In this document: positions 55-52,124 of the stretch, in pieces
How positions within the stretch are numbered: the stretch's first letter is position 1
Layout: each line of letters opens with the position of its first letter
DNA from: Promethearchaeota archaeon
GTDB taxonomy: Archaea > Asgardarchaeota > Lokiarchaeia > Sigyniarchaeales > SOKP01
Length of the DNA: 64,000 nucleotides
NCBI GenBank assembly: GCA_029838195.1
Contig: JALGVJ010000001.1
Location: 227,107-291,106 of the forward strand
Direction: 5' to 3'
Position numbers and translations under genes: made by a program
The notes under the pieces: model-generated
The model's input: the letters and a program-made list of their open reading frames with translations, nothing else
The model's database searches: none
Told to the model about the DNA's origin: nothing

Positions 55-630
55 TTATTTAACCCTATCAAACGCCCATTTCGCCTTATCCACCAAGCCT
101 AAGGCTTCATAAGATTTTCCTAAATAATAAAAAGCGTCGGGAAAATTAAAATTCTCCTTTACCAGTTTAAATAAAGAGCCTATTGCCAGATCATACCGTC
201 TTCGAAAATAATTAATTTTCCCCCGTAAAAAAAGCAATTTTTGTTTTTGGTCCTTAGATAAGTGGGTTTCATTATAACCATTTAGCATGGCAAGAGCACT
301 ATTATATTGTTTTTTCTCGATCATGAATTCTAAAGCTTCTATAAATTTTAAAAAGCGAATCTTCTCCGTGATTACTTCAATCTTCTTTGCAGCTTTCTCT
401 TGCGCCACCCGTTTCTCTTCTTCTAATCTCTCTTTTTCAAATTGTTTCAGATAAGTTTCATATTTAGCTAAAACTGATGGGGGATAAGGTTCATGACAAA
501 CCGGGCAGTTCTTTGAATGTACATACCATTCTTTAAAACAGTGCTCGTGCGCCACATGGCCATTCGGACAAACAACTGCACCATTTAATGAACTCTCAAC
601 CTCTAAATAACAAATTATGCATTTCGGCAT
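55..630 (-). CDS. RING-H2 zinc finger protein with C-terminal TPR repeats (putative E3 ubiquitin ligase)
   Basis: N-terminal C-x2-C...C-x3-H-x2-H-x2-C...W...CPVC RING-H2 pattern, a charged coiled linker, then TPR helices (LFLRGKINYF..YDLAI; DAFYYLGKSYEALG..DKAKWAF). Confidence 0.85.
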   Translation of the reverse strand: MPKCIICYLEVESSLNGAVVCPNGHVAHEHCFKEWYVHSKNCPVCHEPYPPSVLAKYETYLKQFEKERLEEEKRVAQEKAAKKIEVITEKIRFLKFIEALEFMIEKKQYNSALAMLNGYNETHLSKDQKQKLLFLRGKINYFRRRYDLAIGSLFKLVKENFNFPDAFYYLGKSYEALGLVDKAKWAFDRVK

Positions 631-46628: not shown

Positions 46629-48836
46629 ATGTTTGGAAGAAAAAAAGATATAGAGAAAAAGCAAAAAACACCTTCAAAGAAAAAAGAACCATCGACGGCC
46701 CATTGGGGTGCTGAAGAGGAAGATGAGGCCTTAAAAGCGGAGGGACTAAAGAGAATTGATATGGATGTCGGGCGCGTGGAGTTGGTAGATCGGGACACGA
46801 ACACGCCCTATATTGAAACTTATGATGAGGAGACAGGAGAATTAGAGGGGAGTATCTTGCTGAAAGATGGAAATCGGGAAGGTTTACTCGCCTTGGTTAA
46901 GATCATTGAACAAGTTAAAGTGGAGCAAGATCATGGTGCTGACATGAAATCTATTGGGTTTAAAGGGCAATTAAACGTGGAAAACCCGAGTAAAGTTGAT
47001 AGGTTATGGGATATAGATTTGTCTTTAAAAAATATCGAGCAGACTACTCTAAAATCGGATCAGATTAAAATTCAAGAATTAGGTGTCACGGAAGAAGATA
47101 ACGTTGATTCTCAAGAATTTCAAATTAAAGGAGAAGCTAAAAATCTATTGTTAATCAAGGAATACATAAATACCTCTTCAAATGCGGGCGATATTTTAAA
47201 TATTCGCGATATCGAAAATGACCTTCTCTCGTTAAAAGATAAGACGGGAAAGGCAGAGGCTATAGAGGAAATCGAAGAAGAAGAGGAAGGGGAAGAAGAG
47301 GAAGATGAGACTGATGGAGGTGCTGTTGCCTCAGAATATAGTTTGGAATCCTTTGGAATTTCCATCGATAAGGAACAAGTTGTTACTTTTGGAATTGCCA
47401 TGCGTAATCTTTTTGAAAAACCCATTTCGAACGTTAAGGTCGTGAAAAGCATTCCTGCTGAATTTAAAAGCCCCAGGATCGTGGATACTACGATTGGAAG
47501 TGCAGATGTCAAGGGAGATCAATTAATCTGGACTATTGATGTTTTAGAACCCAAGGAAACCGCTCTTTTGAAATTCACCTGTGAAATCATGCCCACCTCT
47601 ATAGAGACCATTAAAACGGGTATCATTGAAGTGAATTACGTGGGAAGTTCTTCCTTCTCGGGAGGTTTGGCCATCGATAAATTTGATGCTTATACGAGAA
47701 ACCGCTTCTATATTGACATAGTTGAAAGAGATGAAGAACCAGATGTATGGGATTGTAAATTGGTGTTTGATAATACTTCTGAATTCGTTGTCCAATTATT
47801 TAATGCAGACGTGTATTCACCCGACGATGAATCAAAGAAGTTTGTAGATATTGATCCGAATGACGTTCCGACTTTACCAGCTGAAGCTCAATGGCATTCT
47901 GTCAAATGGATGTATGAATCGGAAGACTTTCCTACTTTCAAAAAGCTATTAGAATTTCGGGTAATGCCGGATTTTCAAACTATCGTAAATGGTTCCATTA
48001 CAATCGAAGATGTTGAATTATCTATAGCCAGCATTACTGGTGATGTCATTTATAGCTTACATGAAACAATACCGGAAAGAACTGGTGAAATGCCTGAAGA
48101 AGAAGAAGCAATGCTTATTAAGATTCCTACTTTCAAGGAAAAAGAGGTATATGCTTCTCTTAAAATTGAAAATAATGGGTCTGCGCCATTAAATGAAATT
48201 TCCATTATTCAACAATATTTTGATGAATATTATCAACCCCCTAATTCTGATGAGATCCAATTTTTCCTGAATGAGGAAGAAGTGGAATTGACCCCTGAAG
48301 CAGTTACTCTCGAAAATAATGTTCTTACCATCTCCTTAAAGAATTTAAAAGAGAGTTCCGTGGGAATGTTTGAGCCTGAATCCGTTTTGGAAGTTCGCTA
48401 TCCCATTCATTGTATGAAACCTCCAAGAGAGACTATTTTTGAATCAGAAATAATTTATTTGGCAAATACTTTTCCTCTTTCAGAAGAATTAGAATTCAGA
48501 CCTGAAGTTCCCGTCATTGAAAGTGTTCACATCAGAAAGAAGATCAGACTGGGAAAAGAGATCTTACCCATTGGAGAATTGGGCACGTACCAAATTATCA
48601 TTACTGCTGAAAACATTGGAACAAATGAACTAACAGATATAACCCTCTTCGATGTGGTGCCGGATAATTTTGAATATTCTGATTTTAATGTTGAGCCTGA
48701 AATTACTGATGAAATTGAGAAAGATACTTTAAAATGGACCATTGACATGCTCGATGAGGGAGAAAAGAAAGAATTTAGATATACCATTAAAGGTAGTGGA
48801 GATTATAAACCTTCAGAGGCTCAAATTTCTTATTAA
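46629..48836 (+). CDS. Acidic cytoplasmic multi-beta-sandwich protein with an adaptin mu-homology-like domain
   Basis: No signal peptide. Residues ~86-355 resemble the AP mu/delta-COP C-terminal domain, followed by further Ig-like (DUF11-like) repeats (LKWTIDMLDEGEKKEFRY). Confidence 0.6.
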   Translation: MFGRKKDIEKKQKTPSKKKEPSTAHWGAEEEDEALKAEGLKRIDMDVGRVELVDRDTNTPYIETYDEETGELEGSILLKDGNREGLLALVKIIEQVKVEQDHGADMKSIGFKGQLNVENPSKVDRLWDIDLSLKNIEQTTLKSDQIKIQELGVTEEDNVDSQEFQIKGEAKNLLLIKEYINTSSNAGDILNIRDIENDLLSLKDKTGKAEAIEEIEEEEEGEEEEDETDGGAVASEYSLESFGISIDKEQVVTFGIAMRNLFEKPISNVKVVKSIPAEFKSPRIVDTTIGSADVKGDQLIWTIDVLEPKETALLKFTCEIMPTSIETIKTGIIEVNYVGSSSFSGGLAIDKFDAYTRNRFYIDIVERDEEPDVWDCKLVFDNTSEFVVQLFNADVYSPDDESKKFVDIDPNDVPTLPAEAQWHSVKWMYESEDFPTFKKLLEFRVMPDFQTIVNGSITIEDVELSIASITGDVIYSLHETIPERTGEMPEEEEAMLIKIPTFKEKEVYASLKIENNGSAPLNEISIIQQYFDEYYQPPNSDEIQFFLNEEEVELTPEAVTLENNVLTISLKNLKESSVGMFEPESVLEVRYPIHCMKPPRETIFESEIIYLANTFPLSEELEFRPEVPVIESVHIRKKIRLGKEILPIGELGTYQIIITAENIGTNELTDITLFDVVPDNFEYSDFNVEPEITDEIEKDTLKWTIDMLDEGEKKEFRYTIKGSGDYKPSEAQISY

Positions 48837-49143
48837 ATCCATTTTTTTTATTTTATTCCTCTTTTTTCATGCTATTCCCCCTTCTTATTAATGTCCTTCA
48901 AGGTTCCTTCGTTTTAAACGTGATTCACGTGGAACAAACATGAGTTCTTTATAATAATTTGAATTAATTTTATTATCATTATAGGAGGAAAAGAATTAAT
49001 TTAATCACGTGAGGGGGATTCTCTTAAATGTTGTTTAGTTTAACGTTTTTTATTTCAATAAGGATTAAATAGATAAATTTCATGTAATTATTATACAAAA
49101 CATTAAACCGCATGTTTTATTTTCATGGATTTCGAACTAAATA

Positions 49144-50649
49144 GTGTTTAATCTTAACGCATTAAACATGACATTATATAAGAGGTATCAATTGAAATGG
49201 GTCTTTGAAGCTCCTGATGTAATAAGGGCGTGTTCCGTTTTGAAGTGCCCCATCCCTCCAGGATCATACATTCTTTTTGGAGGGCATGATAAAACGCTTT
49301 ACATGATGGACTTGAAACTTAATATCGTGAATGAAGTTTCTTTTGATGGGTGGGTGAGATGCATTCATTCCATTGATTTGGATGGAGATGGCAACCATGA
49401 AGCAGTGCTAATAGGGTCTGGAGATGGGACCATGATGGTATTGAAATTTGATCCGGAAAAAGAAACTTTACGGGCAATAATGAGATACAAGGCAGAGGGC
49501 ATGATTACCTGTTGCACGGCAGGTGATTTGACAAGTAATGGATCTCCAGAATTGCTATTTGGATGTTCAGATAAAACCTTAAGGATTTTTCAAGAGCCTT
49601 TCACTAATGAACCTACATTTACCCTTTATTATGATTCTTGGGTCACGCAGTGTTCTATTGGTTCATTAAAGCTTCCGGAATTCAAGGATCCAATTCAGGC
49701 ACTCTTAATAGGAACGAAAAAGGGAATGTTACAATTAATTATTTTGGAGGCAAAAAAAGATAGATACATGCCAAATATACTCTGGCAGAGATATATGGGA
49801 ACGCAAATTAATGTCATATCGATTGGTGATGTAAATAATGATGGTTTAAATGAGATCGTGGTGAGTACGAATGATTCATTCATAAAAATACTAAATTCCG
49901 CTGGTGAGAATATAAAATACATGCGCGTGGATAATGGTAAATCGATTTCCTTATCTCGCCCCTTAGCAATCAAAATTGATGATATTGATGGCGATAAAGC
50001 TAAAGAACTTATCGTGGGATGTGCAGATGGTACCTTGCGGGTATATCATAATCCCGATCTGAATTCTAATAAATTAAAATTAAAATGGAAAACTAAAGTT
50101 TCCACTTCCATCAAAGATATCTGTACCATTGACGACCCGGAGAAAAAAATCAAAACGCTGATTTTTGGAGGATATGATCGAACTTTGCGGAATATAATGG
50201 ATTTTGAATGGGGGAAAAAACCCGTATTAGAAGTTCCTCAAAAAATTCCAAGAAAGAAAATAAGTGCTATAAAAAAACCATTTAAAATGCCGCCACAACC
50301 CATCCCTACTAACATCATGGAACAAATATTTCTCCTTTTACAAGGAAAGAAATTTTATTGGAATAAAGAACTTTTATCGAGAGAATTAATTGCGATTGGA
50401 TATAAACCTGAAGTTGTGGAAAGAGAATTAAATCGATTGATTGAAAATCATTATCTTTTAGAAGAATCCTTGAATGTTTCTGTTTTAAAATCTTCAGAAC
50501 TCTTGATAAAAGAAATGGAAAAAAATAAACAATTACACCAAAAAAATGATTCACAAGAATTAACTAAACGGGAGAAACTCATTCAAGCTGAAATGAATGA
50601 AGACATACAAGAGGAAAGAGGAACTATACACGAAAGGAATCAAAAATAG
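49144..50649 (+). CDS. Cytoplasmic FG-GAP/WD-like beta-propeller with C-terminal helical (winged-helix-like) domain
   Basis: Repeats DLDGDGNHEAVLIGSGDG, GDLTSNGSPELLFGCSD, GDVNNDGLNEIVVSTND, DIDGDKAKELIVGCADG; no signal peptide; start likely ATG 49168. Confidence 0.75.
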   Translation: MFNLNALNMTLYKRYQLKWVFEAPDVIRACSVLKCPIPPGSYILFGGHDKTLYMMDLKLNIVNEVSFDGWVRCIHSIDLDGDGNHEAVLIGSGDGTMMVLKFDPEKETLRAIMRYKAEGMITCCTAGDLTSNGSPELLFGCSDKTLRIFQEPFTNEPTFTLYYDSWVTQCSIGSLKLPEFKDPIQALLIGTKKGMLQLIILEAKKDRYMPNILWQRYMGTQINVISIGDVNNDGLNEIVVSTNDSFIKILNSAGENIKYMRVDNGKSISLSRPLAIKIDDIDGDKAKELIVGCADGTLRVYHNPDLNSNKLKLKWKTKVSTSIKDICTIDDPEKKIKTLIFGGYDRTLRNIMDFEWGKKPVLEVPQKIPRKKISAIKKPFKMPPQPIPTNIMEQIFLLLQGKKFYWNKELLSRELIAIGYKPEVVERELNRLIENHYLLEESLNVSVLKSSELLIKEMEKNKQLHQKNDSQELTKREKLIQAEMNEDIQEERGTIHERNQK

Positions 50650-50664
50650 CAGAATTAATGAACT

Positions 50665-51099
50665 CTAAAGGAAAAATCTTTTTAATATATCTTTGAAGGG
50701 TTGAAATTGTTCAATCTCGGAAAAATCAACATTATTATAACGGGTTATAAATGCTTGTAAAATAGGATCTGCTTTTCCCAAAAATTTTTTTACCAATTTA
50801 TCAGGATTTTTTTTCGATTTATCCACTAATCCGAAAAGGATTATCGGTTCTTTTTCATTTGAATCTAGGGATTTTACATGATCCACCTTAAAAATGAACA
50901 AGAAATTACCCGATTCTAAATATTCTAGCGAATTATCTGTAAATGCAACTTCTATAAAAGAGCTAATAGCAGAAATGAACGCCCCTCTTAAATCATCTAC
51001 TGATTGTTCTTTCCCTTTTTTTTTATTAATGGTTTTAAAAACGTGATTTACCAAAACAAAACCCCGAAAAACCAATCCAACTTCAATCAACTCTTTCAT
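50665..51099 (-). CDS. Stand-alone longin-like domain protein
   Basis: VGLVFRGFVLV...LRGAFISAISSFIE...LEYLESGNFLFIF...IILFGLVD...FITRY...FQPFKDIL longin pattern. Confidence 0.65.
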   Translation of the reverse strand: MKELIEVGLVFRGFVLVNHVFKTINKKKGKEQSVDDLRGAFISAISSFIEVAFTDNSLEYLESGNFLFIFKVDHVKSLDSNEKEPIILFGLVDKSKKNPDKLVKKFLGKADPILQAFITRYNNVDFSEIEQFQPFKDILKRFFL

Positions 51100-51230: not shown

Positions 51231-51458
51231 ATGAAAAGGTTTTATGAAGATAGTTTTAAATCGAAAAAATCTTGTAAATGGTATGAGGTATGTCCTATAA
51301 AATATTTTGTGGAGCAGGGAAAACTTGACCGAAAATGGATCGAGGAATATTGCCTTATTGGAAATAAAGAATGTAAACGATATCAAATGGAAGAATCAGG
51401 AATTTACCACCCGGATAATATGCTTCCTAACGGAGAAATAAAAGAAGATTTAAAATGA
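51231..51458 (+). CDS. Small Cys-rich conserved-looking protein
   Basis: CKWYEVCP...YC....ECKRY...HPDNMLPNG; overlaps the next gene end by 9 bp. Confidence 0.7.
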   Translation: MKRFYEDSFKSKKSCKWYEVCPIKYFVEQGKLDRKWIEEYCLIGNKECKRYQMEESGIYHPDNMLPNGEIKEDLK

Positions 51459-52124
51459 AAAAACGGATCCTACACATATTCTCTTAAATTGCTTCGGAAA
51501 ATTCATTGCAATAGTATCTACATGCGCAGAGCAATGACATGCTCCAATAAAATCAATTCCTTTTAAAAAAGAAAATTTATTGAATCCATGAAATCCCCCA
51601 ATAACAGCTTTAATAGCTCCAATTTCGCGTCCTTTAATAATGTATCTTTCTAAACCCGGATGAGCACATCCAACCAAAATAATTATTTCTCCAGAATTCA
51701 ATTGTAAATATAGACATTGTTCTTTAAAGTTTATTCCAAGTTCTCCTGAGCTATACATGTTTTTTGCTATTTCAGTAAATTCAGAAATGCCATGAATATT
51801 CGCTTTTGGGAAAAAGTTCACAAACGACTTTACATACGTCTTAGGTACATGAATTTTAATAATCGGATTTAACTCATAAATCTTTTGTAAGCCACCCGTG
51901 TGGTCATGATGATTATGAGAAATGACCACATTTTTAATCTCTTCAATATTTATTCCAAATTTTTTTATATTATGAATCAAAACATCTCCATTCCCTCCTG
52001 TATCGAAAAGGAAATAAGACTTAATAATATTGTTGAAAATCAAGGCAGAGAAACCAAAACCGGTTAAAAATCCGGGTTTATAACAATGATTATCATAAAC
52101 GATTCTAATTATAAAATCATTCAT
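51450..52124 (-). CDS. MBL-fold metallohydrolase
   Basis: FDTG, SHNHHDHTGGL, GCAHPG, GGFH, CHC. Confidence 0.9.
   Translation of the reverse strand: MNDFIIRIVYDNHCYKPGFLTGFGFSALIFNNIIKSYFLFDTGGNGDVLIHNIKKFGINIEEIKNVVISHNHHDHTGGLQKIYELNPIIKIHVPKTYVKSFVNFFPKANIHGISEFTEIAKNMYSSGELGINFKEQCLYLQLNSGEIIILVGCAHPGLERYIIKGREIGAIKAVIGGFHGFNKFSFLKGIDFIGACHCSAHVDTIAMNFPKQFKRICVGSVFSF

Follow-up and report, generated by a model that had tools for sequence, protein, structure and literature searches.

Mu-homology domains (MHDs) constitute the cargo- or partner-binding hubs of clathrin adaptors, of COPI and of the pioneers of endocytosis. In the μ subunits of the adaptor complexes AP-1 to AP-4, the domain is located behind an N-terminal longin and contains β-sandwiches in A-B-A order. 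A longin is also found in delta-COP, whereas in muniscins the MHD is preceded by an F-BAR or by a disordered stretch, and in neither of the two is the domain followed by immunoglobulin-like (Ig) domains. The MHDs of delta-COP and muniscins bind motifs of accessory proteins such as WxW and DPF and not the YxxPhi motif. Here, we describe the gene of a 735-residue protein (nucleotides 46629..48836, forward strand) whose predicted structure contains a complete MHD. It is encoded in a stretch of 64,000 nucleotides from the genome of a member of the Lokiarchaeia (Promethearchaeota archaeon, contig JALGVJ010000001.1 of assembly GCA_029838195.1), hereafter termed the window, to which the coordinates of all features refer unless a locus is named.

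The family of this protein is already known as a candidate eukaryotic signature protein (ESP) of Asgard archaea. In the accessible parts of Eme et al., 2023 (Nature 618:992; PMC10307638), orthologues are listed in Table S3 as ESP candidates under Adap_comp_sub (PF00928), with detection at the level of Pfam, a 'sparse distribution' and the C-terminal domain of μ not being fused to a Clat_adaptor_s longin in Asgard proteins. The table contains orthologues with the motifs IETYDE, RLWDID and VWDCKLVF, and the entry from Lokiarchaeales Bin_204, contig WJIS01000289, corresponds to a locus of our collection (L004) with 59% identity. A 2026 preprint (10.64898/2026.10.28.762692) counts clusters of BBS7/ITFG2 and of longins as catalogued ESPs of Asgard archaea, and a text search of the literature for Asgard in combination with mu homology domain returned no match. 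The present analysis adds the match of the fold in its full topology, the limits of the domain, its extension by Ig domains and a caveat concerning cross-matches to DUF11. It further adds the paralogy of the family with three members in one genome, a distribution over 226 of 301 genomes as compared to 'sparse', a neighbourhood with genes of a β-propeller and a longin, and a hypothesis on the binding partner. In our judgement it is probable, though by no means assured, that we are dealing with a cytoplasmic Lokiarchaeial protein with a genuine MHD, which shares its ancestry with the C-terminal domain of AP μ subunits, delta-COP and muniscins and which serves as interaction platform with the propeller as its likeliest partner.

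Results

A complete MHD in the predicted structure

The structure of the protein was predicted with AlphaFold2 without templates and from 42 archaeal sequences only. The model shows a mean pLDDT (predicted local distance difference test score) of 79.4, with most of residues 84-461 at values of 82-95 and with disordered stretches at residues 1-38, 214-237 and 485-494. Residues 84-461 (46878..48011, forward strand) are predicted to form an MHD with both subdomains complete, in which subdomain B is inserted in subdomain A as expected for the A-B-A order. In a Foldseek search, the C-terminal domain of μ2 was matched with target-normalised template modelling (TM) scores of 0.60-0.73, compared to values below 0.2 for multi-Ig proteins such as integrins and PrgB. 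In the subsequent alignment with VIA-align, the best μ2 entry superimposed with a Z score of 18.9 for 225 of 245 residues at a root mean square deviation (rmsd) of 3.6 Å, relating residues 84..461 of the model to 169..435 of the chain, and the μ2 matches over both structure searches range between Z 17.8 and 18.9 for 225-228 residues with an rmsd of 3.6-3.9 Å. All 50 of the 50 listed entries of the re-ranked Foldseek list are MHDs, including μ1 to μ4, delta-COP (Z 16.3-16.5), SGIP1 (15.1) and FCHO1 (14.7). A search of 48,161 PDB representatives that is independent of Foldseek placed MHDs on ranks 1-9 (Z 14.3-17.8), and below them pilin domains on residues 468-634 (Z ~14) and Ig or carbohydrate-binding module (CBM) domains on residues 637-735 (Z ~10). 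The MHD matches (μ2, μ4, μ3, μ1, delta-COP, SGIP1, FCHO1 and Syp1) extend over 210-228 of about 250 residues and encompass both subdomains, whereas single sandwiches that match residues 171-468 reach Z ~11 over about 116 residues.

An earlier note on the letters of the window had placed a domain of this kind, resembling adaptin μ and delta-COP, at 46884-47695, which corresponds to residues 86-356 within the open reading frame (ORF) 46629..48836. The assignment as MHD holds up but the end of the domain has to be moved, as its closing strands run to residue 461 (~48011). According to the same note, the assignment would be refuted if the best structural matches were confined to generic DUF11 or CARDB Ig domains without the interleaved two-subdomain topology. 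This is not what we find, since the best matches are complete two-subdomain MHDs.

In comparison with the C-terminal domain of the μ subunits of AP-1 to AP-4 (μ2 in PDB entries 1BW8, 5WRK and 2XA7), with which it shares the A-B-A sandwiches (Z 15.8-18.9, 210-228 residues), the domain is expanded to 378 instead of about 267 residues by a poly-Glu loop of 25 residues and other insertions, it lacks the preceding longin, and it is followed by two extra Ig domains. The same fold is found in delta-COP (4O8Q, 5FJW) and in the muniscins FCHo1, SGIP1 and Syp1 (5JP2, 5AWR, 3G9H) with Z 13.0-16.5, latter resembling the archaeal protein also in the absence of a longin ahead of the MHD.

Relationship to μ subunits on the level of sequence

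The subdomain-B-like Ig module, whose limits at residues 248-356 (47370..47696, forward strand) are approximate, is matched by two Pfam families, by DUF11 at residues 248-323 with an E-value of 1.3e-11 and by Adap_comp_sub (PF00928) at residues 250-356 with an E-value of 9.4e-5, covering profile positions 125-237 of 259. PF00928 also matches 24 of 42 orthologues, the best with E 6.2e-9. When the protein itself was compared to PDB sequences with phmmer, no match was obtained at E 10. With profile A4, which was built from 69 diverse members of the family and searched against 177,635 PDB sequences, the top eight matches are all μ subunits of AP complexes, including μ2 (E 7.5e-4), μ3 (3.2e-3) and μ1 (0.076). 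The underlying alignment consists of two collinear segments, one of which contains β1-β2 of subdomain A outside of the DUF11-like part, and the other subdomain B. Its register places E94, the conserved glutamate of the family, on E179 and G113 on G198 of μ2. The subdomain-B module is aligned to residues 301-402 of μ2 and, in 4ikn_A, to chain positions 137-239 of mu3A. The match of the profile to μ subunits is weak, yet specific in its rank.

The sequence strings on which the earlier note had based its comparison to μ are all present in ORF 46629-48836 in the order described, with LALVKIIEQVKVEQ at residues 87-100, FKGQLNV at 111-117, LLLIKEYIN at 173-181, NVKVVKSIP at 268-276, SPRIVDTTIGS at 281-291, LIWTI at 299-303, IEVNY at 333-337 and SGGLAI at 344-349. 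The likeness is borne out by profile A4, which aligns the first-strand segment and the later block to μ2, and by the predicted fold with its Z scores of 18-19.

The YxxPhi pocket

In the YxxPhi pocket of μ2, Asp176 is reported to bind the hydroxyl group of the cargo tyrosine (Owen and Evans, 1998). Inspection of this pocket, as proposed along with the original assignment, gave a negative outcome at the two positions that were placed: in the register of profile A4, Lys91 is found at the position of Asp176 and Leu89 at the position of Phe174 of μ2, and Lys91 is nearly invariant in orthologues. With a lysine in place of Asp176, a canonical tyrosine pocket is, as far as the sequence can tell, unlikely to be present in the protein, which in this respect would resemble delta-COP and the muniscins.

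Organization of the protein

The protein has neither signal peptide nor transmembrane segment nor anchor, with a maximum of 0.96 in a 19-residue Kyte-Doolittle window, and it is very acidic with an isoelectric point (pI) of 4.36. The absence of a hydrophobic segment and the pI of 4.4 suggest that it would be soluble and reside in the cytoplasm. Its gene is part of an AT-rich window with a G+C content of about 34%. More than 372 homologues were identified with lengths of about 710-750 residues, the named ones originating mainly from metagenome-assembled genomes of Promethearchaeota or Lokiarchaeota.

Ahead of the MHD, the chain starts with a lysine-rich basic tail (residues 1-22; 46629..46694, forward strand), which is predicted to be disordered (pLDDT below 50 for residues 1-38) and whose net charge of +6 agrees with the basic N-terminus already pointed out in the earlier note; the charge of the tail is between +3 and +7 in 42 of 42 aligned homologues. 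It is followed by a β-meander (residues 40-77; 46746..46859, forward strand) with strands assigned by DSSP at 40-44, 49-52, 61-65 and 72-77, which holds an invariant IETYD..TG..EG motif with invariant columns between T59 and G74. This meander is not a longin, and residues 1-83 indeed contain none, neither in the AlphaFold2 model, which displays disorder and the short meander, nor in a Pfam scan, in line with what had been claimed from the letters. The poly-acidic insertion noticed at the same time is real as well. The acidic run EEIEEEEEGEEEEDETD (residues 213-229) belongs to a disordered poly-Glu loop (residues 213-237; 47265..47339, forward strand; pLDDT below 50 for residues 214-237) with a net charge of -14, which is inserted behind the first half of subdomain A, at the junction to subdomain B. 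In homologues the loop comprises 24-62 residues with net charges of -3 to -43, being negative throughout. Conservation in the alignment of orthologues is highest at residues 59-74, 119-130 and 350-450, which suggests that subdomain A may bear a functional surface.

The additional β-sandwich domains that had been anticipated behind the MHD are found in the model. A third module (residues 466-635; 48024..48533, forward strand) is a β-sandwich resembling pilin and cohesin domains of Gram-positive bacteria, with VIA-align matches to RrgB (Z 14.2), BcpA (13.9) and SpaD (13.5) that start at model residue 466 or 468 and end at 632 or 635. The C-terminus is formed by an Ig domain of the DUF11 type (residues 637-735; 48537..48833, forward strand), which matches Ig and CBM domains at Z ~10; in the Pfam scan, DUF11 has two matched stretches. 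On a side note, this C-terminal domain gave a weak match of profile A4 to the gamma1-adaptin ear 1gyv (E 0.014), with several ear entries at E 0.014-0.38 and no ears in the top 50 of the structural search.

Neighbouring genes

The gene downstream of the MHD gene (49168..50649, forward strand) encodes a cytoplasmic FG-GAP β-propeller with a helical tail that resembles BBS2, BBS7 and ITFG2, as it matches Pfam Beta-prop_BBS7 with 84.3 bits at a cut-off of 27, and Itfg2 and BBS2_Mid also above their cut-offs. Its ORF extends over 49144-50649, and the N-termini of orthologues point to the ATG at 49168 as the probable start of translation. The predicted product of 493-501 residues is about 55 C-terminal residues shorter than orthologues of about 556 residues, a truncation shared by the other genome of this genus. 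While these Pfam families are shared with BBS2 and BBS7 of the BBSome and with ITFG2 of KICSTOR, the protein differs from these in consisting of one propeller and a short helical tail, without any detected GAE or platform domain.

Further downstream, 1.8 kb from the MHD gene and on the reverse strand (50665..51099), follows the gene of a free-standing longin-fold protein of 144 residues, whose AlphaFold2 model (pLDDT 81.6) displays the topology β-β-α-β-β-β-α. In VIA-align, it matches VAMP7 (Z 12.8), Sec22 (11.8), the Loki longin 8yqg (11.4), the N-terminal domain of μ2 (10.9) and sigma3 (10.0), and as these matches differ by no more than about 2-3 Z units, they do not separate the subtypes of longins. 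A Pfam scan of 39 members of the longin family found no family match, and a longin profile searched against PDB sequences returned noise only. Just past the longin, a gene of the metallo-beta-lactamase fold (51450-52124, reverse strand) was observed, which is kept in 15 of 80 loci.

The genes of MHD and propeller stand in tandem in 75 of these 80 loci, which come from different species, and 69 of the loci contain the longin. In three genomes of a sister family, the genes of MHD and propeller are adjacent in convergent orientation, with neither glycerate kinase nor longin nearby. Orthologues of both MHD and propeller are jointly missing in four of four sampled genomes of one genus (g3), and weak matches were found in another (g4). 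Adjacency of the MHD gene to propeller or longin was not seen in other Asgard classes.

Paralogues and distribution

The genome that contains the window is 96.6% complete with 7.9% contamination and encodes three members of the MHD family, which share the four-module layout and align from the MHD onward. The paralogue on contig C34 comprises 766 residues with 51% identity and scores 31.3 bits with PF00928, and the one on contig C62 comprises 702 residues with 22% identity. Both paralogues have a CxxCxxCC (PF03692) gene directly upstream in divergent orientation (L086:8819-9214 (+), C34; L087:8157-9002 (+), C62), which is absent upstream of the MHD gene in the window.

A profile of residues 40-465 (A3) matched 226 of 301 sampled Asgard genomes in 61 of 71 genera at a cut-off of E 1e-5, with full-length orthologues (E ~1e-230) being found only in the window's own family. 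A search over 1.84 billion cluster representatives yielded matches to 354 clusters. Named relatives belong to Promethearchaeota, Thor-, Hel- and Jordarchaeia, and the named members of 30 representative clusters are all Asgard with one exception. A homologue assigned to 'Bathyarchaeota' (P0196, MBD3186534.1) was discarded as a probable binning error, as its relatives are all Promethearchaeota. The complete block of glycerate kinase, MHD, propeller and longin genes was also encountered on a contig deposited as 'Candidatus Nanopelagicaceae bacterium' (L049, DATKTW010000130.1), and both this contig and P0196 look like mis-binned Asgard DNA. Atlas cluster labels give an indirect lead to possible members from Thermoplasmatota. 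Lokiarchaeial relatives of about 1000-1060 residues (P0224, P0239, P0251, P0254 and others) carry the MHD-like region behind an N-terminal extension of about 400 residues without Pfam match.

Discussion

Several observations speak against a genuine MHD that acts as interaction platform, and we consider these together with the alternatives that they invite. The structure is a predicted one, with PF00928 the protein scores 22.3 bits and stays under the gathering cut-off (31.6 bits), and of the profiles of close orthologues, A1 finds no match among PDB sequences at E 1 and A3 finds μ3 alone at a non-significant E of 0.95. Lys91 at the position of Asp176 is a further such point. In addition, PF00928 scores 84.2 and 33.5 bits on giant DUF11 repeat proteins (P0155 and P0262, both probably bacterial) over its profile positions ~110-204, so that the match of subdomain B to this family is not specific when taken alone, and a score above or below the cut-off says little. 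We have thus dropped the Pfam match as sole evidence for an MHD, since these control proteins score too; subdomain B of MHDs and Ig domains of the DUF11 type resemble each other in a general way. This cross-match, together with the YxxPhi aspartate not being conserved, would suit a cytoplasmic multi-Ig scaffold of adhesin-type modules (DUF11, CARDB, pilin-like) with one Ig domain inserted into another, in which the likeness to MHDs reflects shared building blocks or convergence and no role in trafficking. Its look-alikes in a language-model comparison are all archaeal 'DUF11 domain-containing' clusters, modules three and four match pilins and CBM/Ig domains, and annotation pipelines have labelled relatives as 'TIGR01451 repeat protein'. 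We nevertheless regard such a scaffold as rather unlikely, as both subdomains match in the same insertion order over 225-228 residues with Z 18-19, compared to about 11 for single sandwiches, and as profile A4 aligns β1-β2 of subdomain A to μ2 and ranks μ subunits above all other Ig proteins of the PDB. The DUF11 and pilin-like modules might also suggest a secreted or surface-exposed adhesin-like protein, as are most proteins with DUF11, CARDB or pilin domains, but the lack of a signal peptide, transmembrane segment or anchor with a hydropathy maximum of 0.96, the polybasic N-terminus, the disordered poly-Glu loop and the pI of 4.4 render this assignment very improbable.

The gene neighbourhood bears on a more far-reaching proposal. 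The linkage to propeller and longin suggests a possible complex, which it does not prove, and such a complex could constitute a primitive adaptor or coat that reaches membranes by way of the basic tail or a small GTPase and selects membrane proteins. We find this improbable, although the three products match building blocks of AP complexes, COPI and the BBSome, their genes are kept in synteny in 69-75 of 80 loci, the adjacency of MHD and propeller outlasts rearrangement in the sister family, and the basic tail is conserved. Its support comes solely from the gene neighbourhood, and the longin is linked to the MHD gene within one family only. The glycerate kinase gene upstream is equally syntenic (72 of 80 loci); a functional link thus finds little support in synteny within the family, and the adjacency may stem from shared ancestry. 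The joint absence in genus g3 loses weight, since a single deletion can remove adjacent genes. In one genome of the same family (L106, G138:C25:1-12000), propeller and two tandem longins follow a CARDB/Ig ORF of at least 1936 residues, which stands in place of the MHD gene and does not match the MHD profile; here the putative partners occur without an MHD gene. In the window, no GTPase gene is adjacent, the longin is encoded on the opposite strand, and the stop codon of the MHD gene is directly followed by an oligo-T tract (48837-48870), which suggests a separate MHD transcript. This tract and the subsequent AT-rich spacer of about 300 nt ahead of the propeller gene would fit the presence of an archaeal terminator and of a separate promoter. 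The two paralogues reside in unrelated contexts. Concerning the other subunits of an AP or COPI heterotetramer (two large adaptins and a sigma/zeta small chain), Clat_adaptor_s has no match at E 0.01 in the own genome, and likewise none anywhere in the control genomes. Adaptin_N matches in the own genome two HEAT-repeat proteins only, which are not adjacent to the MHD gene, and as the family also matches proteins of the Bacillus and methanogen controls, these hits are non-specific. The combined scenario, in which MHD protein, propeller and longin of Lokiarchaeia physically assemble into a pre-eukaryotic adaptor- or coat-like module, with the polybasic tail or a small GTPase bringing it to the membrane, and in which an archaeal sandwich gave rise to the MHD when a DUF11-type Ig domain was inserted in it, is one to which we would attach little credence.

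Under the explanation that we prefer, a cytoplasmic protein with a genuine MHD, the protein would serve as a soluble platform for interactions in the manner of eukaryotic MHDs, and may bind partner proteins or short peptide motifs at the edges of its sandwiches. Since the key aspartate is replaced by lysine, it would not use the YxxPhi pocket of μ1-μ4, and our working model assumes binding of the accessory-motif type as in delta-COP and muniscins. The basic tail may touch an anionic membrane or the acidic loop of the same protein. The likeliest partner would be the adjoining BBS2/BBS7-like propeller and perhaps also the free longin. For the propeller speak its tandem arrangement with the MHD gene in 75 of 80 loci, the convergent adjacency in the sister family and the joint absence of both orthologues in genus g3 with weak matches in g4, whereas the synteny of the glycerate kinase, the possibility of a single deletion, the locus in G138 and the oligo-T tract count against this partnership as well.

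The cross-match of PF00928 has consequences beyond this family. 'Mu-homology' calls in prokaryotes that are based on Pfam only need to be checked for the presence of subdomain A, which is a warning for the calling of eukaryote-like proteins in general. In the present case, the prediction extends beyond a Pfam fragment to what appears to be a complete MHD fold in a soluble Lokiarchaeial protein, with relatives in most of the sampled Asgard genomes. Since clathrin adaptors, COPI and the pioneers of endocytosis have MHDs as their hubs, the origin of the domain bears on the question of how vesicle traffic arose, and there is a hint in the Asgard family that the MHD may have been assembled from prokaryotic Ig modules of the DUF11 type.

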